DNA of 64,000 nt from Chloroflexota bacterium (GCA_965261635.1 OZ253463.1:353164-417163), one strand, 5' to 3'. Numbered from the stretch's first letter, positions 39,111-49,537 are shown. Numbers and translations are program-made. The notes: generated by a model not told the origin, from the letters alone.

Positions 39111-40097
39111 TCACACGAGCGCCCTGCCGCTCATCCAGTATTCGCGCCAGACCGTATAGCCGAGCTTGCCGTAGAAGTCGACGATGCGCGTCCAGTCGAT
39201 GTGGCAATTACCGATGCCACGATCCCGCAGAACCTGCGAGCCGACTGCCACCATGCCGATGCCGCGCCCCCGTTCGCTCGCCGCTACGCCTACGGCGCTG
39301 ATGCCGCCGAGGTTGTCCCCCAGCAACGTCTTCCACGTGATGTTCGCCCCCAGCCAGCGGGATGTCGGCGTGTGCAGCATGAGCGTGCTGACAATGCTCT
39401 TCCGTTCGTCGACTGCGATTAGCATATTCTGGAAATCGCCGAGCTCTGCCGTGTAGACGAATGCTGCGGCCCAACCGGGAAAGTGCTCCGCTTCAAAGGC
39501 AAGCACGTCCGCTACCTCGTCCTCCCGGGCCGGGCGTATTATCACCTGCTCCTGCGCCAAGCGCGCGCTCATCGCCGCAGGCATCTGAAAATCGCTAAGG
39601 TCGCGCACCAGGTCGCACGACCGCTGTTCCGGGTCAAGCGGCCAGCCGCAGGAGGCAAAGAACGGGTACGCCCCGGGCAAGTCGGTGGGGATCCCCGGCC
39701 AGAAGCGGTACGCGCCCCCACCGCCGAGACGCAGCGCGCCCACGCCCGCCTGCCGCAGATGGCCGAGCGCGGCCTCGTGCAGCCGCGTGCCGATGCCCTG
39801 CCGCTGCCGCTCCGGATGCACGAGCACCACGGATATCCCGCCGCTGCGCTCCTGCACGTCTGGCTCGCTCCGGTCAATCTGCGTGCCCACGAAGCCAACG
39901 ATCCGCTCGTCCGCGACCGCCACCAAGTGATCGTCCCCGCGATAGAAGCGATGATCGGTCAATTGCCGCCGCAAGAGGTCATCGCGCATGGGCCACGTCT
40001 CACCCAACACCGCCTGCCAAAGCGCAAGCAGCGATGCCGCGTCACCCTGCGGATCGTAGGTTTGGATTGTCATTTTGTTAATGGCTGATGCTCGCAA
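39111..40097 (-). CDS. GNAT family N-acetyltransferase (tandem GNAT domains)
   Basis: Two acetyl-CoA binding motifs, RQGIGTRL and RGRGIGMV. Confidence 0.8.
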   Translation of the reverse strand: MRASAINKMTIQTYDPQGDAASLLALWQAVLGETWPMRDDLLRRQLTDHRFYRGDDHLVAVADERIVGFVGTQIDRSEPDVQERSGGISVVLVHPERQRQGIGTRLHEAALGHLRQAGVGALRLGGGGAYRFWPGIPTDLPGAYPFFASCGWPLDPEQRSCDLVRDLSDFQMPAAMSARLAQEQVIIRPAREDEVADVLAFEAEHFPGWAAAFVYTAELGDFQNMLIAVDERKSIVSTLMLHTPTSRWLGANITWKTLLGDNLGGISAVGVAASERGRGIGMVAVGSQVLRDRGIGNCHIDWTRIVDFYGKLGYTVWREYWMSGRALV

Positions 40098-40205
40098 CGC
40101 AATTGCGCTGAGCGGTCATGAGTTGACACCACGCACTCCCCATCGTTTTCACACGATTTAGGCAAGTGTCATGAATGTAAAGAGAAGACCAAAGGAATTA
40201 GCGCG

Positions 40206-41006
40206 CTACATGTAATTGTATCGAACCTTATTATACAGATTGTCAAATACAGCAACTATTTCTTCGTCACTGCCTAGCATTCGCAAATAGCGGTCAATCT
40301 CGTCAAAAGGGATTTCGAAGTATTGGTCGAACAACTGGGCACCACGATAGATATTGCTCGAAGGAACATAAATCGGTCCGTAACGCTTAACTGGGTTGAG
40401 GTAATACAGAACGGGTCTTAACGCATGAACGTCGGTCACCTCAAGGCGGTTTATCAGTCCAGCATAGGTCTTGATGAATTTGCGGTTAATGTCCACAAAT
40501 TTGCCTGTATCATGGTCGTCGTTGTACTTAATCTCGACATATACGCTTTGCTTGCCTCCTACTTGGAATAGTGCATCCACATCCTTTGTAATGGTTTGCT
40601 TCGGCGCAGGTGAATCGCGTTCAATTGACAGTATTCGGTTGAGGAGTTCTTGGAACACCTCGTCGCAACCATCTGGACTATCTGGAAGCTGCCGAGAAGT
40701 AATGTATTCGTCGATCAAGCTATCCGTTTCTGCGGTCATAGAGAGAGGGATCTTCTTGCCTGATTCCGGCAGTGCCGAAACCTTCGTATCGTAGTCAACC
40801 ACAAGAGCAATGAGTTTTTCAATGAAGTTCCCGAACTTAATGTTGAGAGATTGGAGCAAACCGCCCAGCACACGATATTGCGGAGGAATAAAGTGAATTT
40901 TCTCTTTGTGTAGTGCGACACTCCTTTGAATATTCCTCTCTGATATAGTTTGGTCGATGATCGTCCGGATAGCGGTACGGACTATAGCACGGACATCCTC
41001 ATCCAT
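40206..41006 (-). CDS. Putative Type II restriction endonuclease (HinfI-like partner of the adjacent CcrM-type MTase)
   Basis: A 266-aa ORF immediately downstream of the MTase in a lower-GC islet. It has a PD-(D/E)xK-like D...EIK core (VYVEIKYNDDHD). Its size matches R.HinfI-class enzymes. Confidence 0.5.
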   Translation of the reverse strand: MDEDVRAIVRTAIRTIIDQTISERNIQRSVALHKEKIHFIPPQYRVLGGLLQSLNIKFGNFIEKLIALVVDYDTKVSALPESGKKIPLSMTAETDSLIDEYITSRQLPDSPDGCDEVFQELLNRILSIERDSPAPKQTITKDVDALFQVGGKQSVYVEIKYNDDHDTGKFVDINRKFIKTYAGLINRLEVTDVHALRPVLYYLNPVKRYGPIYVPSSNIYRGAQLFDQYFEIPFDEIDRYLRMLGSDEEIVAVFDNLYNKVRYNYM

Positions 41007-41015
41007 TAACCGCGC

Positions 41016-42140
41016 CTATCCTTTCAGGCCGTGTTCCTCACGGTACTTTTCCCTCAATCGGTCGATACTCATACGTTCGCCGTTGGCACTCTCGAAGTAC
41101 CAAAAATCCCATCCGTTAAAGGCGGTCTGCCCAAGCAGGCTAGCCGCAACTTTATGAATTGAGCCCTTTACATTTCCTGACGAAAGTGTACCATCCGCAT
41201 GAATGATAGCTTCACACTCTCGACTCTGGGCGTAGAGAACCTGCCCTACCGACAAGTACCCTGCTTCGACGAGCGCGCTAAAACGTACGCGTGGCTGATT
41301 ACGTCTAGAGTTCGTGATTAACACACTGTCATCGTAAGGTAGGGGACAGATACTCTCGATGCGCTGGCGAGCAATCCGCACATAATTCACTTCCCGCTCA
41401 ATCCCAACGTAGTTTCGTTTAAGCTTTTTGGCAACTGCTCCGGTTGTACCGGAACCAAAAAATGGATCAAGCACGGTATCACCGGGATTGCTCGAAGCGA
41501 GTATCACTCGGTACAGCAAGGATTCCGGCTTTTGTGTGGAGTGTGCCTTTTCCCCATTTACCTTGATCCGCTCCGCGCCTGTGCAGAGCGGAATGTGCCA
41601 CACATTTGGCATCTGTTTTTCTTCGTTTATGTTTTTCATAGCGTGGTAATTGAACGTATATCGTCTTTGGCCCTCCGTCTTTTTTGCCCAGATTAACGTT
41701 TCCGTGGCATTCGTAAAGCGAGTACCGCGGAAATTCGGCATGGGGTTGGACTTGTGCCAAATTACGTTATTCAGTATCCAAAATCCCAAGTCCTGCATAA
41801 TGCTGCCCACGCGGAAGATATTGTGATACGTTCCGATGACCCAGATTGTGCCATCGTCCTTTAGCACACGCCGACAAGCTTCCAGCCATGCACGCGTGAA
41901 TTTGTCGTACTCTTGAAAACCAGAGAACTTGTCCCAGTTGTCATCTACCGCGTCTACAAGTGTTTGATTTGGGCGTATGAGTTCATTTTGCAACTGCAAG
42001 TTATAAGGAGGGTCAGCAAAAATCAAGTCTGCACTTCTTTCCGGCAACACCTGCAAGATGCGGATACAATCACCTTGGATGACTTCATTCAGGGGAAGTA
42101 CACTTCTTGTCGCTACCACGTTGGTTTCACGTTCAACCAC
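41016..42140 (-). CDS. Beta-class N6-adenine DNA methyltransferase, CcrM/M.HinfI family (GANTC-type)
   Basis: Near collinear with CcrM: IQGDCI...LPE.S.DLIFADPPYNLQL...L.RP....VDAVDD.WD.F.....YD.FTR.WL...RRVLKDDG.IWVIG.YHNIFRVG...QDLGFWILN...W.KSNPMPNF.GTRF.NA.ETLIWA, motif I DPFFGSGTTGA, and the CcrM-type C-terminal domain. Confidence 0.85.
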   Translation of the reverse strand: MVERETNVVATRSVLPLNEVIQGDCIRILQVLPERSADLIFADPPYNLQLQNELIRPNQTLVDAVDDNWDKFSGFQEYDKFTRAWLEACRRVLKDDGTIWVIGTYHNIFRVGSIMQDLGFWILNNVIWHKSNPMPNFRGTRFTNATETLIWAKKTEGQRRYTFNYHAMKNINEEKQMPNVWHIPLCTGAERIKVNGEKAHSTQKPESLLYRVILASSNPGDTVLDPFFGSGTTGAVAKKLKRNYVGIEREVNYVRIARQRIESICPLPYDDSVLITNSRRNQPRVRFSALVEAGYLSVGQVLYAQSRECEAIIHADGTLSSGNVKGSIHKVAASLLGQTAFNGWDFWYFESANGERMSIDRLREKYREEHGLKG

Positions 42141-42209
42141 TTGTATACCCTTCTATTGTTAACCATTCTGATGGACACACGATCAGGTGCATGCGTAATA
42201 GCATCTGGC

Positions 42210-42983
42210 TTACGACAGCCGCATTGGGATTCCCTTAGCGGCCAAGTATTCTTTTACCTCGCGCACGGTGAAGTGCTCGTAGTGGAAGATGGAGGCGGCG
42301 AGCACGGCGTGGGCGTGGCCCTGATCGAGGGCCTCAAAGAGGTGTTCCAGAGTGCCGCCGCCGCCACTGGCAATCACCGGCACGTCCACGGCGGCGCACA
42401 CGGCAGCGAGGAGTTCCAGGTCGTAGCCGGCCAACGTGCCGTCGGCATCGATGCTGTTGACCACGATCTCGCCCGCGCCGCGTGCCACGCCCTCGATCGC
42501 CCACGGCACCGCCTCGCCATCTGTCTGGCGGCGGCCGCCGTGGGTAAAGACATGCCACTTGATGGTGCCGTCAGCTTGGGGCACGCGCTTGACGTCCATG
42601 GAGAGCACGGTGCACTGGCTGCCGAAGCCCTCGGCCCCGGCGTTGATCAGATCGGGATTCTCCACCGCCGCCGTATTGATGGAGACCTTGTCCGCGCCCG
42701 CCATGAGCATGCGACGCATGTCCGGCGCCGTGCGAATGCCGCCGCCGACTGTGAGCGGAATGAAGAGCTGGTCGGCGGTGCGCTCTACGAGGTCTTGGAA
42801 GATACCGCGCTCTTCCGCCGAGGCGGTGATGTCGTAGTAGACCAGTTCGTCGGCGCTCTGCTCGTTGTAGCGCAGAGCCAGCTCGATGGGGTCGCCGGCG
42901 TCCTTGTCAGCGGAGAATTGCACGCCGCGCACCACGCGGCCGCGATGCACGTCGAGACAGGGGATTATGCGTGTTGTGAGCAT
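42210..42983 (-). CDS. hisF: Imidazole glycerol phosphate synthase cyclase subunit
   Basis: RIIPCLDV...G..V.GV.F, and full-length TIM-barrel HisF conservation. Start placed at MLTTRIIP. Confidence 0.9.
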
Positions 42984-43274
42984 ACGGTTTACGTCGAAGA
43001 CCTTGAGAAACAATCCACAATTCGTGAACCGCTCGTCCCACACTTGGAACGGCGCACTTGAACACCTGGCACTCTTGTCGCCACCACCATGATAATTGAC
43101 GACATATCGCAGCGTCACGCTGGCAAGGGCTGTTGTCTGGTCAAAATAGTCTGTGCGTTGCTGGCAGGATCTTTGCTACTCATGCATCACGACTAAGCGC
43201 AAATAAACCACGTTCGTATCCAAGACAATCGCCCCTTGAAAGTACGGTATATTCTTTGCCCCAGCAGCTATTTC

Positions 43275-43970
43275 TTATTCCGTGCTCCCCCAGCTAGGCG
43301 GTTTCCTGATCGTGCCGTGCACGTCTGTCTGCGTGTTCGGGAATTGGCTCCGCCGCAGATGGCTCTTTCGAAGCCTCTTGACATAGGTTGCCGCATCTAC
43401 CAAGTCCCTGTGGGTGACATTGTTGGAGTCTGGATTTACCACTGCAACACGAAGGTGCAATCCTTCTCGCACGTACTGTATCGCGCTCGCAAAGTCCGAA
43501 TCGTTCTATACTATCACAGCATGCTCGTACTCGTGATTGAATCCGTCAACCAGAAGCCTGGTTACGAGGTTCACGTCTGAGCCCTTTTCCTCCGCCTCTC
43601 TAATTTGCACGTAATCCGGCAATCCCGCTATTGGGCTGACCAGCGGACGACGTTTGGTGCGCAACCGGAACGTGCCAAAATGGGCCTCGAAGTTCGGCAA
43701 AGTTGCTAGCGCCCTCAGATACACCTGTTGGCGCTGGGGCTGACCAGGGTCATTTGGACGCGCATCGAGCATCGCGGTAAAGTAACAGATTTGATTGATA
43801 GTATCTTTCGGAAAGAGCACCTCAGCGAGTTTGCGCAAATTTAGCCATTTGAAGGGAGTGTCCCTTAGAGCACGATAATATAGATTGAAACCGTCTACGT
43901 AGACGTTGGTCTTCACTTGACACTCCATCTGACCACTTAAAGACAGAGACCGCTCTGAGAGCGGCCTCAA
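43275..43970 (-). pseudogene. NYN/LabA-like (PIN-like nuclease) domain gene disrupted by frameshift
   Basis: Frame A (43506-43970) has the NYN N-terminus VYVDGFNLYY...EKGSDVNL. The adjacent frame B (43275-43472) continues with VAVVNPDSNNVTHRDLV, typical of the NYN C-terminal half. It lies in a lower-GC islet between hisA and hisF. Confidence 0.45.
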
Positions 43971-44168
43971 CCCTACCGCCTAAGCGATAGGGGCTGTATC
44001 TAGATATTAGCAAGTAGCCGAAAAGGTGTCAAGGGATTGTAGGCAGCAAGCCGGGGCCTTTTTCGTGCGCCTCTGTAGTTCACTCAGGCTGTTAGTTCCA
44101 ACAAAGGTCCCACGTCCCGATTGCCCGCCCTAGCACAATAAGAGTCAAACGAGGAGTCCCCGATTCGC

Positions 44169-44894
44169 TTATTGCCCCTGAATGCCCACCACATTCAGTG
44201 CTTCGGGCAGCGTGAACGCGCCCTTATAGAGCGCGGAGCCGACGATCGAGCCCTCAACGCCGAGGGTTGCCAGCCGCGTGAGGTGTTCGAGAGTCGCGAC
44301 CCCGCCGGAAGCAATCACCGGCGCGCTCACGGCCCGCGCCAGTGCCGCTGTTGCCTCGAAGTTGGGTTGGGAGAGCGTGCCGTCGCGCTCCACGTCGGTG
44401 TAGAGGAAGCGGCTCACACCGTTGGCGACCATCTGCTGCGCCAGGTCGAACATATCAACGCTGCTTTCCTGCTGCCAGCCGTGGGTCATCACCTTGCCGT
44501 TGCGGGCGTCCAGCGCCACCACCACCCGACCGGGGTAGCGTGCGCACGTTTCCGCCACCAGCGCGGGCTCCTCCAACGCCACCGTACCCAAGACAACCCG
44601 CGCCACACCCGCCGCGATCACCTCCTCGATGGCCGTCAGGTCGCGCAACCCGCCGCCCATCTGCACGGGTATCGACAGCGCTTCCGCCACGGCAGCCACC
44701 ACCGGCAGATTCCGGCTGCTGCCCTTCTCGGTGCCGTCCAGGTCTACCACGTGGAGCAGCGCCGCGCCCTGGGTCTCCCAGCCGCGGGCGGTCTCCACGG
44801 GATCGTGGGAAAATACCGTCCGCTGGGCGAAATCGCCTTTATAGAGGCGCACGACCACGCCGTCCTTGATGTCAATCGCGGGAATAACTTGCAT
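44169..44894 (-). CDS. hisA: Phosphoribosylformimino-5-aminoimidazole carboxamide ribotide isomerase
   Basis: MQVIPAIDIKDG...V.L.KGD N-terminus and the C-terminal phosphate-binding GG..IASGGV motif. Confidence 0.9.
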   Translation of the reverse strand: MQVIPAIDIKDGVVVRLYKGDFAQRTVFSHDPVETARGWETQGAALLHVVDLDGTEKGSSRNLPVVAAVAEALSIPVQMGGGLRDLTAIEEVIAAGVARVVLGTVALEEPALVAETCARYPGRVVVALDARNGKVMTHGWQQESSVDMFDLAQQMVANGVSRFLYTDVERDGTLSQPNFEATAALARAVSAPVIASGGVATLEHLTRLATLGVEGSIVGSALYKGAFTLPEALNVVGIQGQ

Positions 44895-45016
44895 ATCTAC
44901 TAAACCTACCGTGAACGCCGCTTGCCCGGGGAAATTCCACGAATCTTATCACCTGAACTCAATTTATGTTCCCTTGGCTGCGCAAGCGCATTCTTAATTG
45001 GCGTCTCATTTCGAGG

Positions 45017-45310
45017 TTGCTTGTCCCCCGCCTCTCCGGCATTGTGTCGTGGCGGCGGAACAGTAACCGTTCGTTCTGAGCCTGTCGAAGGATGAACAGG
45101 GGCTTGTCCCCCGCCTCTCCGGCATTGTGTCATGGCAGCGAAATAGTATCCGTTCGTCCTGAGCCTGTCGAAGGATGAACGGGAGGCTTGTCCCCCGCTC
45201 CTCAGCACCGTGTCATGGCGGCTGAACAGTATCCGTTCGTCCTGAGCATGCCTATCCTGAGCATGCCGAAGGGTCGAAGGATGAACGGGGCTTGTCCCCG
45301 CTTCTTGGCA
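45017..45310. repeat. Tandem array of three ~85-bp composite REP units in the hisA-hisH intergenic region
   Basis: Each unit is gcttgtcccccgcctctccggcattgtgtcatggcggc...ccgttcgtcctgagcctgtcgaaggatgaacgg. The second half is a palindrome (CCGTTC...GAACGG) of the dispersed CGTTCGTGCTGAG/GTCGAAG family. Confidence 0.55.
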
Positions 45311-45365
45311 CTTAGATAGCTACCATACCAGGCCATGCACTCGCAGACCCCAGCCCCACTTGACC

Positions 45366-46013
45366 TCAAGATTTAGCGTGCAGACCACTCGATGCACATG
45401 CCGTCGCGCCCGTTGCCCAGGCCACGAAATTCGCATAGAGCCGCAGGCCCATGGCGGCGCTCTTTTCCGGATGGAACTGGGTAGCAAAGACGTTCTCGCG
45501 CGCCAGCACGCTGGGAAAGGTCACGCCATAGTCGGTCGTACCGGCCGTAAGCGCGGCGTCGTCCGGATCGGTGTAGTACGAGTGCACGAAGTAGAAGTAG
45601 GCGTCGTCCGGGATACCGGCGAACATGGGATGCTCCTGCGCCTGGCGCACCTGGTTCCAGCCCATGTGCGGCACGGTAAGCCCTTTGGGGAAGCGCCGCA
45701 CCACGCCGGGATAGATATCCAGGCAAGGCGTGCCGCCATCCTCTTCACTCGCCGTCAGCAAGACCTGCAACCCCATGCAAATGCCGAAATAGGGCTTGCC
45801 GGACGCAATCGTCGCCTTCACCAGGTCGGTCATGCCGTGCCGCGCCAGCCCGCGAATAGTATCTCCCGCCGCCCCCACGCCGGGCAAAATCACAGCAGCA
45901 GAGCGCTCCACCACCGCCGGGTCCTGCGTCACCACATAGTCCTGCGTATACAACGCCACCGCGCGGCTAACACTTCGCAAATTCCCGGCACCGTAGTCAA
46001 TAATCGCAATCAT
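45366..46013 (-). CDS. hisH: Imidazole glycerol phosphate synthase glutaminase subunit
   Basis: MIAIIDYGAGNL N-terminus, catalytic Cys in GICMGLQ, and the C-terminal HPE. Confidence 0.9.
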   Translation of the reverse strand: MIAIIDYGAGNLRSVSRAVALYTQDYVVTQDPAVVERSAAVILPGVGAAGDTIRGLARHGMTDLVKATIASGKPYFGICMGLQVLLTASEEDGGTPCLDIYPGVVRRFPKGLTVPHMGWNQVRQAQEHPMFAGIPDDAYFYFVHSYYTDPDDAALTAGTTDYGVTFPSVLARENVFATQFHPEKSAAMGLRLYANFVAWATGATACASSGLHAKS

Positions 46014-46061
46014 GATAAAACGTCCACACCTATACGAAAGATCCACCAAAGTACGATACGC

Positions 46062-47576
46062 CTAAACGAACTTTCTTACACTCCTAATCTTACTTAACTC
46101 GTTGACGAGGAATTCTTGAGGCCGGTCGCCTTTTGTGCGATTACAATGCCCACAAAGTAATTGGAGGTTTTCCATATGGTCTGTACCGCCGCGTGAGCGT
46201 GGAATGACATGGTCAACTTCAAATATCTTGAACGGAAACTCCATTTTGCAGCCATTGCACTGCCCTTCTTGTTTGCCAAAGAGAACGTGCTTGTTCTGGC
46301 GATAGGGAACGGGCGTGTCGATGTCGGTTCGCTTTGGCGTATCGGAACGGGACACGACTAGTCGGTCGTGAAACAACCCGCCCATTGCGTCTGCAAGCCG
46401 AAATTTCACAAGTTCAACCGCTTTTGGCGACAGGTCAATACCAACCCACCTACGTCCCAGCGACTCGGCGGCGACGCAAGCAGTGGCGCAACCACAGAAC
46501 GGATCCAATACCAAGTCTCCAGGGTTGCTGCTCGCCGAGATGATGCGTTCCAACAGCGCCAATGGCTTTTGCGTCGGATAACCGATGCGCTCCTTGGCTT
46601 GTGCCTGCACGGGCAGTATATCGCTCATGAAATTGTTGCACTTCTGACCCGGCGTGGATGCTAGGTATCGCTTCAAAGCTGGCATGCCACCTTTCTTCTG
46701 CGGCCAGTAGAGCATCCCAGCATCGTCCAACGCATTCAGTCGGTCATGTACCCCTTTGATGCTCTTGTAACCCGGTATTACGTTTTCCTCAATCCAATCG
46801 GCGTAGGACCCAATGCTCGGAACTGCCCAGTGCCGTCCGCTGTTGTTCGGATCTGCATCCCTCCACGGCTCGCCGCTCTCCCCGGTTCTTGTTTCCGCTG
46901 CGGTTAGATCGGACAATCTGAACCGTCCGCGCTCTTCCTCGTGGCGGTAAAACTTGCGGATGTATTCGGGATCGTGAGGGACATATACATTGTTCCATGT
47001 CGCCCCTTGGCCCGCATAATAGAGCAATACATCGTAGACTCGCCCAAACCGCTCTCCGTCTGACCGTCCAGTCGTCCGCTTCCACGCTATTTCGTTCCTG
47101 AAGTCTGCCGCGCCAAAGACACTATCCAGCAGCAGCTTTAGGTAGTGGCTTGCCGTGGGGTCGCAGTGGAGGTAGATGCTTCCATTTTCTTTCAGTACGC
47201 GCTTCATTTCCATCAGCCGTACGGTCATCATGCATAGGTACGATTGCATTCCCTTGCCGTGCGTTAGGCCGGCCGTCTCAATGACTTTGTACACGGCGGG
47301 TTGCTCATCGGCGATCAAGCCCATCCAGGCAACATCGAGATCGGAGAGCGTCCATGTGTCCTTGAAGGCGGCGCCCGCCGCCACGCTCCCTACCGGCGCC
47401 GCATAAGTTCGGTTGGAATTGAATGGCGGGTCAAGGTAGATGAGATCGACACAACTGCTATTCAGACCTCTTAGGATGTCGAGGTTATCGCCTGTCCAGA
47501 TCGTTCTGTTCGCAAAGTTGGGGTCAGTGTTCATGCCAATTGTTCCATGCGCTACTGTAATTGCGGGAGTTGGCAA
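46062..47576 (-). CDS. Beta-class (N4C/N6A) DNA methyltransferase fused to a C-terminal HNH endonuclease domain
   Basis: The 504-aa ORF has motif IV LDPPFNS near the N-terminus and motif I DPFCGCATACVAAESLGRRWVGIDL late in the protein. It ends in an HNH module (CNGCK...DHVIPRSRGGTDHMENLQLLCGHCN). It lies in a lower-GC islet. Confidence 0.8.
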   Translation of the reverse strand: MPTPAITVAHGTIGMNTDPNFANRTIWTGDNLDILRGLNSSCVDLIYLDPPFNSNRTYAAPVGSVAAGAAFKDTWTLSDLDVAWMGLIADEQPAVYKVIETAGLTHGKGMQSYLCMMTVRLMEMKRVLKENGSIYLHCDPTASHYLKLLLDSVFGAADFRNEIAWKRTTGRSDGERFGRVYDVLLYYAGQGATWNNVYVPHDPEYIRKFYRHEEERGRFRLSDLTAAETRTGESGEPWRDADPNNSGRHWAVPSIGSYADWIEENVIPGYKSIKGVHDRLNALDDAGMLYWPQKKGGMPALKRYLASTPGQKCNNFMSDILPVQAQAKERIGYPTQKPLALLERIISASSNPGDLVLDPFCGCATACVAAESLGRRWVGIDLSPKAVELVKFRLADAMGGLFHDRLVVSRSDTPKRTDIDTPVPYRQNKHVLFGKQEGQCNGCKMEFPFKIFEVDHVIPRSRGGTDHMENLQLLCGHCNRTKGDRPQEFLVNELSKIRSVRKFV

Positions 47577-47713
47577 ATAAAGTATACTGCACGCTCTATT
47601 GACTGTGCTAAGCCTGCGAAAGCAACGACCAAGTGACTGGCACTCGTATTGTATGATTTAAGTAGTAGAGTCTCGCTCTCACAAGAAGCATATGGGGGAA
47701 GTTTGCTGTTATC

Positions 47714-49537
47714 ATGTATTTTCTAAAGCCCTCACCTAGAATCTCAGACTTTGACAATTGCGCCTGGGAAGAGGCGGTTGATTCAGCCTATGCGAAGAAG
47801 TGCTCAGCCTACTTTGAGTCTTTTAGAGACAAGATTACAGAAACAGCTGAAAGAGGAGATGAGCAACAGCAAAACGTATTCACGGTAATGTGGGCTGCTA
47901 CTTCACTTCATCTCAACAATCCTTCCGACGAATCTAACCCGTTTTGTCCAATTGCGACTGGTACTGGTTTCCGGTTTGCAGAAGTGGATGATTTTACGGA
48001 TGAGCATCTAGAGGTCTTTGGTAAGCTAATCTCAAGAATCAAGGATCCAGAACTACGTGCGCGCATCGCGGACATCGTATGGGTACGGAACCGCAGTCAC
48101 AAGGTAGCAGAGCAGGCAGTTGGCGCGTACTTGGAATCTGCAGGAAGATTAGAAGACACGGATGTGCCCGAGCCACCGTGCATAGACAGAATAAAACGTG
48201 CCGTTACCCTAGCGGTGTTGCACGGAAGAAAAACGCAGATGTTCAAGCAGGTCATAGCACACATTGAAGATACCCTCGAAAGACACAAAGAGAACGACCC
48301 CTCGTATTTGTCCGCAGAATTAATGAAAATGTTGCTAGAAAAGAAGGTGGGAGATGGTGCGACGTACGCGCAGCTTGCAGAAAGGCATGCCATCGCCGCA
48401 GAAAGTGACGAGGACTGGTATAGACCTAAGACTTACTTGGAGTTGCAAGCTCGCTGGCTCGAACGTGCGAAGGACAATACGGGCAGCAGAGCAGCACACA
48501 TTAGAGTGGCAGAGCAATACGAGCACGCGGCAAGAGATCTAGCAAACCGAGCACGACCAGACTACCTAACGGCAGCGGAGCTCCTCAAGAGCGCCATTCA
48601 AGCCTATCAGCGCATTGGCGGAGAAGAGGAACGTATAGAGAAACTGCATCGAGAACTCCTGGAATACCAGCGCAAGGGAACAGGCCAAATGGGACGAGTC
48701 TCTGCGGAGATCCCGATAGACGACTTGAGTGCATCTGCGATTAACGCAGTGAAGGAAAAGCCAAAAAGTGAAGCAATTCGTGCACTGGCTTTGATTGATG
48801 ACCCTTCTTACCTTGGTTTTCTGCGCCAGCACGTTGAACAGGAGAAGGAAGATTTTCCTTTGCTACATATTCTGCCCTGGATTCAGCAAGATGCATCAGG
48901 GCGAACACTCGGTTCTGTTCCATCGTCACTCTCGGATAGCGCGGAAGATAAAGCGGCTGCAACCCATTCTCACTTACTGAGACATGCAAGTCTAATGCGC
49001 TCGCTGATGGTACAAGCTCGCATTGAACCAGCACGGCGACAGATTCATCAAGAACACAGTATGTGCGAGCAAGACTTTGCACCATTCGTTGCTGACAATC
49101 CCTTCGTGCCGGAGGGCAGAGAAACGCAGTATGTCCGCGGTCTCCACGCTGGCCTAGAGGGCGACTTCGAAATTGCAGTCCCTCTTCTGATCCCGGAAGT
49201 GGAGAACTCTATAAGGCATGTTCTGTCTCTACGCGGAGTGGTCACTTCAGGCCTGGATTCAAAAGGTATTCAAAGAGTTTACGGATTGGGGAAATTGCTC
49301 CATCGTCCTGAATTGAAGAAAATCTTGGGCAACGACATAGCTTTTGACCTACAGGGCCTACTGGTTAAGTCGGAGACAGGGGTGGGAGACAATCTTCGGA
49401 ATCGAATGGCGCATGGCCTGATGGACGACAAGGATTTCTTTAGAACAGACGCAATCTACCTTTGGTGGCTGGCGCTTCACCTGCTCGTTCGCTTTCAAAT
49501 TGCACGTGATTCTCGTGTTGGTCAGAGCCAGAGCTAG
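47714..49537 (+). CDS. Large hypothetical protein with a C-terminal HEPN-like Rx4H motif (GDNLRNRMAHG)
   Basis: A 607-aa, mostly alpha-helical ORF transcribed divergently from the MTase-HNH gene. The C-terminal ~120 aa carry an R-N-x-x-A-H-G motif, characteristic of HEPN RNase active sites in Abi-type proteins. Confidence 0.5.
   Translation: MYFLKPSPRISDFDNCAWEEAVDSAYAKKCSAYFESFRDKITETAERGDEQQQNVFTVMWAATSLHLNNPSDESNPFCPIATGTGFRFAEVDDFTDEHLEVFGKLISRIKDPELRARIADIVWVRNRSHKVAEQAVGAYLESAGRLEDTDVPEPPCIDRIKRAVTLAVLHGRKTQMFKQVIAHIEDTLERHKENDPSYLSAELMKMLLEKKVGDGATYAQLAERHAIAAESDEDWYRPKTYLELQARWLERAKDNTGSRAAHIRVAEQYEHAARDLANRARPDYLTAAELLKSAIQAYQRIGGEEERIEKLHRELLEYQRKGTGQMGRVSAEIPIDDLSASAINAVKEKPKSEAIRALALIDDPSYLGFLRQHVEQEKEDFPLLHILPWIQQDASGRTLGSVPSSLSDSAEDKAAATHSHLLRHASLMRSLMVQARIEPARRQIHQEHSMCEQDFAPFVADNPFVPEGRETQYVRGLHAGLEGDFEIAVPLLIPEVENSIRHVLSLRGVVTSGLDSKGIQRVYGLGKLLHRPELKKILGNDIAFDLQGLLVKSETGVGDNLRNRMAHGLMDDKDFFRTDAIYLWWLALHLLVRFQIARDSRVGQSQS

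Follow-up and report, generated by a model that had tools for sequence, protein, structure and literature searches.

A probable two-gene restriction-modification system of the HinfI family inserted between hisF and a GNAT gene in a Chloroflexota bacterium

We analysed a 64,000-nt stretch of DNA from a Chloroflexota bacterium (hereafter the window), in which two adjacent genes, M and R, lie between hisF and a gene for a GNAT acetyltransferase (Table 1). The initial annotation had described the pair as a CcrM/M.HinfI-like methyltransferase gene followed, within 10 bp and on the same strand, by a 266-aa ORF; both ORFs were recovered, both on the minus strand and 9 nt apart. Read directly on that strand, the TAG stop codon of M is followed by GCGCGGTTA and then by the ATG of R, and an AAAGGA Shine-Dalgarno-like motif lies within the final codons of M; from this layout, translational coupling of the two genes would be expected. 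The GTG start of M pairs with ATG in the alignment with two orthologues, and the GNAT gene probably starts with the ATG at 40073. The 69-nt spacer upstream of M is too short for a controller (C) protein gene. Further upstream of hisF lie hisH, hisA and an NYN-domain gene, and an Rfam search of the window returned four tRNAs only, none of them near the cassette. The lower-GC islet reported by the initial annotation is real: measured in 500-nt windows, the GC content is 0.46–0.51 within about 40000–42250 versus 0.58–0.69 on both sides, and the pair as a whole has 47% GC versus about 65% for the flanking genes.

Table 1. Features of the hisF–M–R–GNAT locus, in window coordinates, with base composition
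Feature	Coordinates	Strand	Assignment or basis	GC	Third-position GC
M gene, 374 aa, GTG start	41016-42140	minus	beta-class N6-adenine DNA methyltransferase, M.HinfI/CcrM type	0.488	0.53
R gene, 266 aa, ATG start	40206-41006	minus	HinfI-family Type IIP restriction endonuclease, PD-(D/E)xK fold (predicted)	0.449	0.50
M-R spacer, 9 nt	41007-41015	minus	direct sequence reading		
hisF-M spacer, 69 nt (left cassette junction)	42141-42209	minus	AAGGG ribosome-binding site within		
R-GNAT spacer, 132 nt (right cassette junction)	40074-40205	minus	alignment with occupied relatives		
hisF, upstream flank, host gene outside the system	42210-42983	minus	PF00977, 1e-76	0.655	
GNAT acetyltransferase, two-domain, downstream flank, host gene outside the system	39111-40073	minus	PF00583 and related GNAT families	0.652	0.81

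The Pfam scan assigned residues 38–258 of M to the N6_N4_Mtase family (PF01555, 2.5e-68) and residues 276–370 to a C-terminal RAMA domain (PF18755, 7e-15). Motif IV, DPPY (D43–Y46), precedes motif I, DPFFGSGTTG, which is the order of the beta class. M aligns with the CcrM structure chain 6PBD over residues 19–367 with 464 bits and just two single-residue gaps, so that the likeness to CcrM and M.HinfI claimed by the initial annotation extends, as it had said, through the C-terminal extension. CcrM reads the G of GANTC by R44, the target A by its DPPY motif and K193, the T by R129 and W109, and the C by N124 and the backbone of loop-45; the two DNA strands are kept apart by L42 and F125, its activity requires S315 and W332 of the C-terminal segment, and this segment and strand separation are common to M.HinfI and CcrM (PMC13092597, PMC7672430). 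In the 6PBD alignment, L38, L42, R44, W109, N124 and F125 of CcrM correspond to L50, L54, R56, W121, N136 and F137 of M, and R129, R179, K187, K193, S315 and W332 to R141, R191, K198, K204, S327 and W344. The base-contact and strand-separation residues of CcrM, including D43, P44, P45 and Y46 in the numbering of M, are thus all kept. By analogy with the two known enzymes, M probably uses CcrM-like, strand-separating recognition of GANTC.

A more specific identity, CcrM proper, the orphan cell-cycle methyltransferase of Alphaproteobacteria, was considered for M and rejected. M is not CcrM proper, since it scores 556.4 bits against the NCBIfam CcrM equivalog NF050803, under its cutoff of 830. 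It is not an orphan, since an intact gene for a HinfI-family R lies 9 nt downstream. Nor is it a core gene of an alphaproteobacterial genome, the host being a member of the Chloroflexota and the site lacking M in three sibling lineages; the named hisF homologues are all from Chloroflexota, as are the nearest R homologues outside the clade. The PADLOC models give close scores, 554 bits for MTase_II and 542 bits for the orphan-methylase model.

R matches the NCBIfam equivalog NF045831, 'HinfI family type II restriction enzyme', with 260.5 bits against a cutoff of 175, residues 1–261 of its 266 aligning with positions 1–263 of the 264-position profile. This bears out the suggestion that the 266-aa ORF encodes a restriction endonuclease. 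R also matches PADLOC REase_II (194.6 bits), and the related GANTC enzyme family HpyAIV with 25.6 bits only. A local Pfam scan of R returned no family, even at E <= 1; we treated this miss as a quirk of the library, because the NCBIfam and PADLOC matches are clear and PF09520 is among the precomputed annotations of a protein identical to R (P0001). A large protein collection holds 1112 R homologues, and among the matches listed all carry a precomputed PF09520 annotation and a few are named 'HinfI family type II restriction enzyme' by their sources. Identity to R is 36–42% for the homologues sampled from Helicobacter, Brachyspira and Mycoplasma genomes.

R is full length, with neither frameshift nor stop codon. 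In an alignment with 21 homologues (55–91% identity) 69 columns are invariant, all of them present in R by construction, as R served as the reference sequence; they include E129, D142, D144, E158, K160 and the block YNDDHDTGKF. We propose E129, D144, E158 and K160 as the catalytic residues. The D...EIK core that the initial annotation had pointed out corresponds to D144...E158-I-K160, its three catalytic positions being invariant in the 21 members. An AlphaFold2 model built from the same alignment (mean pLDDT 85.9, pTM 0.81) places D144 at the opening of the strand 145–149, E158 and K160 in the strand 153–160, and E129 in the preceding helix. In the model, this is the canonical PD-(D/E)xK layout, an intact core on a restriction-endonuclease-like fold. 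A comparison of the R sequence with PDB chains gave nothing meaningful (best E-value 0.72). The best structural match is the Type IIP PD-(D/E)xK enzyme EcoO109I (PDB 1WTD), with 12% sequence identity; it shows no sequence-level match to R, and its recognition sequence, RGGNCCY, differs from the GANTC predicted here.

Like the HinfI system of Haemophilus influenzae Rf, the pair in the window has both genes on a single strand, M preceding R, which is also the gene order of the HinfI operon. The HinfI methylase and endonuclease have about 359 and 262 aa and the NF045831 profile has a length of 264, similar to the 374 and 266 aa found here; R.HinfI cleaves G^ANTC. M shares with M.HinfI and CcrM the beta-class motif order and a C-terminal segment of roughly 80 residues. 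The two systems differ in host, Chloroflexota here and Gammaproteobacteria for HinfI, and in the chromosomal site, which is here downstream of hisF; the likeness of R to HinfI rests on the family profile, the sampled homologues with 36–42% identity making it divergent. Caulobacter crescentus CcrM is an orphan, whereas M is paired with an endonuclease and, unlike CcrM, is dispensable, as sibling lineages have the site without it. By sequence, the pair is an uncharacterised, fairly divergent Chloroflexota addition to the HinfI restriction-modification family. Automated NCBIfam annotation would name both M and R.

We searched 82 loci encoding an R homologue by tblastn with M and R; these loci come from Chloroflexota, Patescibacteria, Spirochaetes, Clostridia, Mycoplasmatota, Campylobacterota and others. 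In about 73 of the 82, R is directly preceded on its own strand by a homologue of M, mostly 1–50 nt away and in the majority of loci 1–30 nt away, and contig ends explain most of the loci without an upstream M. M is 53–75% identical to the methylases paired with other family members (L001 to L014). In the wider family, 61 of 68 loci show a lower GC content in the M-R pair than in the flanking sequence, and the pair adjoins hisF or GNAT in this clade only; both observations, drawn from sequence comparison, count as evidence for mobility of the cassette. R homologues were absent from the plasmid and phage collections, so that these identified no vehicle.

The order hisF–M–R–GNAT is found in the window and in two metagenomic relatives (L080/L081 and L082), whose orthologues are 88–91% identical to the window protein for R and 85–86% for M. 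In three other relatives hisF is followed directly by GNAT, with a spacer of 343 nt in L083, 59 nt in L090 (on a 3.53-Mb contig) and 62 nt in L091. Because hisF directly precedes GNAT in these three, we conclude that the cassette is accessory and polymorphic at the hisF–GNAT site. HisF is 92–96% identical to that of the window at the amino-acid level in L080, L082, L083, L090 and L091; at the nucleotide level, hisF of the empty lineages is 88–89% identical to that of the window versus 86–90% for the occupied ones. The six lineages are roughly equidistant, with occupied and empty sites interleaved, the lineages closest to L080 being the empty L083 and L091. Alignment of the window with the empty L083 shows similarity up to about 3 nt past the hisF stop codon and then again from within the start of the GNAT gene. 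The R-GNAT spacer of 132 nt in the window measures 38 nt in L080 and 122 nt in L082, and the hisF-M spacer is partly conserved among the three occupied lineages, as seen in the alignment with L080 and L082. The cassette junctions show neither a target-site duplication nor terminal repeats nor mobile-element genes, and we found no clear similarity between the spacers of the empty sites (59–62 nt in L090/L091, 343 nt in L083) and those of the filled sites. The 343-nt spacer (L083 5632–5974) contains G/C-rich inverted repeats, for example CCCCCTCTCCTTGGGGAGAGGG, and could represent a small repeat element or a scar left at this junction.

When the window is compared with each orthologue, dN/dS is 0.08–0.09 for R (dS 0.51–0.67), 0.11–0.12 for M (dS 0.70–0.81) and 0.12–0.27 for GNAT (dS 0.61–0.78); between L080 and L082, dS is 1.10 for R, 0.92 for M and 1.19 for GNAT. 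By these estimates from coding sequence, purifying selection on both M and R is strong, and their divergence roughly matches that of the flanking genes. Since the cassette occupies the same site in three lineages, with dS values of 0.5–1.1 similar to those of the flanking genes, it was acquired before the three occupied lineages diverged and is not a recent arrival. The horizontal acquisition proposed by the initial annotation thus stands as far as an accessory insert is concerned, with empty sites in three close relatives. Later, the cassette was either lost repeatedly or transferred among relatives through recombination in its flanks. The window is nearest to L082 in R and M (91.4% and 85.8% amino-acid identity) and to L080 in hisF and GNAT (96.1% and 80%). 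This mild tree incongruence, in three taxa only, is a hint that relatives may have exchanged the cassette by recombination.

The surroundings of hisF hold other foreign-looking sequence. Over 39111–49537, the hisH-hisA-hisF segment is interrupted and flanked by three lower-GC pieces. The upstream one is a methylase-HNH/DUF4209 islet, the NYN gene separates hisA from hisF, and the HinfI-type cassette follows on the downstream side. The NYN-domain gene (43275–43931, minus strand; PADLOC HEC-09, 2.2e-23) carries an in-frame TAG at 43506–43508 in place of the serine of a conserved VI(S)NDSDF, beyond which the frame runs for 77 more codons; its orthologue in L082 is intact (212 aa), and the copy in the window is probably a nonsense-mutated pseudogene or the product of a sequencing error. 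Just upstream of hisH, in a lower-GC stretch, a second methyltransferase gene (46062–47576, minus strand) encodes a 504-aa fusion protein that combines an N6_N4_Mtase domain (DPPF motif, 1.1e-39) with an HNH nuclease domain at its C terminus (4.8e-14). The C-terminal methylase motif region of this protein is 39.5% identical to the HinfI-type M over 86 aa, and the protein could be a single-chain methylase-nuclease for defence. The divergently oriented gene at 47714–49537 (plus strand; 607 aa, with DUF7380, 8.5e-42, and DUF4209, 9.1e-12) shares with it an islet of 45–52% GC (about 46000–49500), and its product possibly acts as a partner within a defence locus. Upstream of hisF, L080, L090 and L091 carry different genes (a nitroreductase or a GFO/IDH/MocA oxidoreductase), which argues that the hisF neighbourhood is prone to rearrangement.

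Neither the hisF-M spacer nor the sequence following R yielded a minus-strand sigma-70-like promoter or intrinsic terminator, the counts of both being those expected from shuffled sequence. An AAGGG/AAAGAG ribosome-binding site precedes the M start in the occupied lineages, and the cassette comes immediately after hisF and shares the orientation of hisH-hisA-hisF. From this arrangement, M and R could be transcribed by read-through from the his operon or from a non-consensus promoter. A more elaborate proposal, that the cassette is read through from the histidine operon and that, rather than being simply lost, it is exchanged as a whole by homologous recombination in the flanking housekeeping genes, seems to us unlikely. 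If his-operon read-through did occur, the levels of restriction and modification would be tied to amino-acid supply.

As all the CcrM contact residues are kept in M and R matches the HinfI equivalog, GANTC is by far the most likely specificity to be predicted for the pair. We also examined whether this site is avoided, as the initial annotation had anticipated for active restriction. The window contains 221 GANTC sites, versus 234 expected from base composition, 240 +/- 14 from dinucleotide shuffles (z about -1.3) and 244 from a maximal-order Markov model. With observed/expected ratios of 0.91 (Markov) and 0.94 (base composition), GANTC is not avoided in the window, and the Markov ratios are similar, 0.84–0.94, in the fragments of relatives with the cassette or without it. 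The anticipated under-representation was therefore not found; at this sample size its absence gives no support for a working system, yet no argument against one. The initial annotation had set against its own reading the combination of an R unlike known endonucleases with undepleted GANTC; the counts agree with the second part, and R does match the HinfI equivalog.

Taken together, we consider it highly probable that M and R are the two genes of a HinfI-family Type IIP restriction-modification system, present as an accessory insert between hisF and GNAT. In such a system, M would be transcribed and translated before R, which lies 9 nt downstream on what would be the same mRNA. M would methylate the adenine of GANTC on both strands of the host DNA, an M dimer probably separating the DNA strands with the aid of the C-terminal segment, by analogy with CcrM and M.HinfI. 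R, probably as a homodimer, would cut unmethylated GANTC in incoming DNA. The cassette has been kept under purifying selection since its acquisition, and three sibling lineages are without it. Gene structure, profile-based family membership, the conserved catalytic and DNA-contact residues, the predicted fold, the gene order, purifying selection and the presence or absence of the cassette come directly from the sequence analysis; from these we infer the GANTC specificity, the cleavage position, the oligomeric state, co-transcription and activity.

Could M instead act alone, as a de facto orphan that methylates GANTC for epigenetic or regulatory ends like CcrM, next to an inactivated remnant of R? 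The lack of GANTC depletion in the window would suit such a state, as would the 464-bit similarity of M to CcrM and the nearness of the two PADLOC scores (542 bits orphan, 554 bits Type II), and the nearby NYN gene shows that gene decay occurs in the region. R is nevertheless full length and has all 69 invariant residues of its family, catalytic positions included, and its dN/dS of 0.08–0.09 with the two orthologues is below that of M and of the flanking GNAT. M falls under the CcrM equivalog cutoff, its host belongs to the Chloroflexota and not to the Alphaproteobacteria, and its absence from the site in three sibling lineages argues that it is not an essential regulator. We regard an orphan M beside a dead R as very improbable, and the preference of the initial annotation for a restriction-modification system over a cell-cycle methyltransferase is upheld by the failed CcrM equivalog, the intact R and the siblings without M.

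That the pair works as a restriction-modification system of the same fold and family but on a target other than GANTC is also very unlikely. The family PF09520 is named for TdeIII as well, an enzyme that cuts GGNCC, and a homologue of R with 60% identity (P0069) is named 'TdeIII family' by one source; EcoO109I, the best structural match, has a different target, and specificity may drift within restriction-enzyme families. Against this, R exceeds the NF045831 cutoff by 85 bits and reaches just 25.6 bits with the HpyAIV family, M keeps the CcrM base contacts R56, K204, W121, R141 and N136, and the 53–75% identity of M to the partner methylases of the family members L001 to L014 speaks for the HinfI-type, GANTC-specific system that we favour.

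Under this preferred reading, the CcrM-like gene of this genome is to be annotated as a restriction-linked methylase and not as a cell-cycle regulator. The pair is possibly the source of a HinfI isoschizomer, a point of small importance. The locus offers a clean example of a restriction-modification cassette that some sibling lineages carry at one fixed chromosomal site and others lack, its low GC content having been kept despite substantial divergence.
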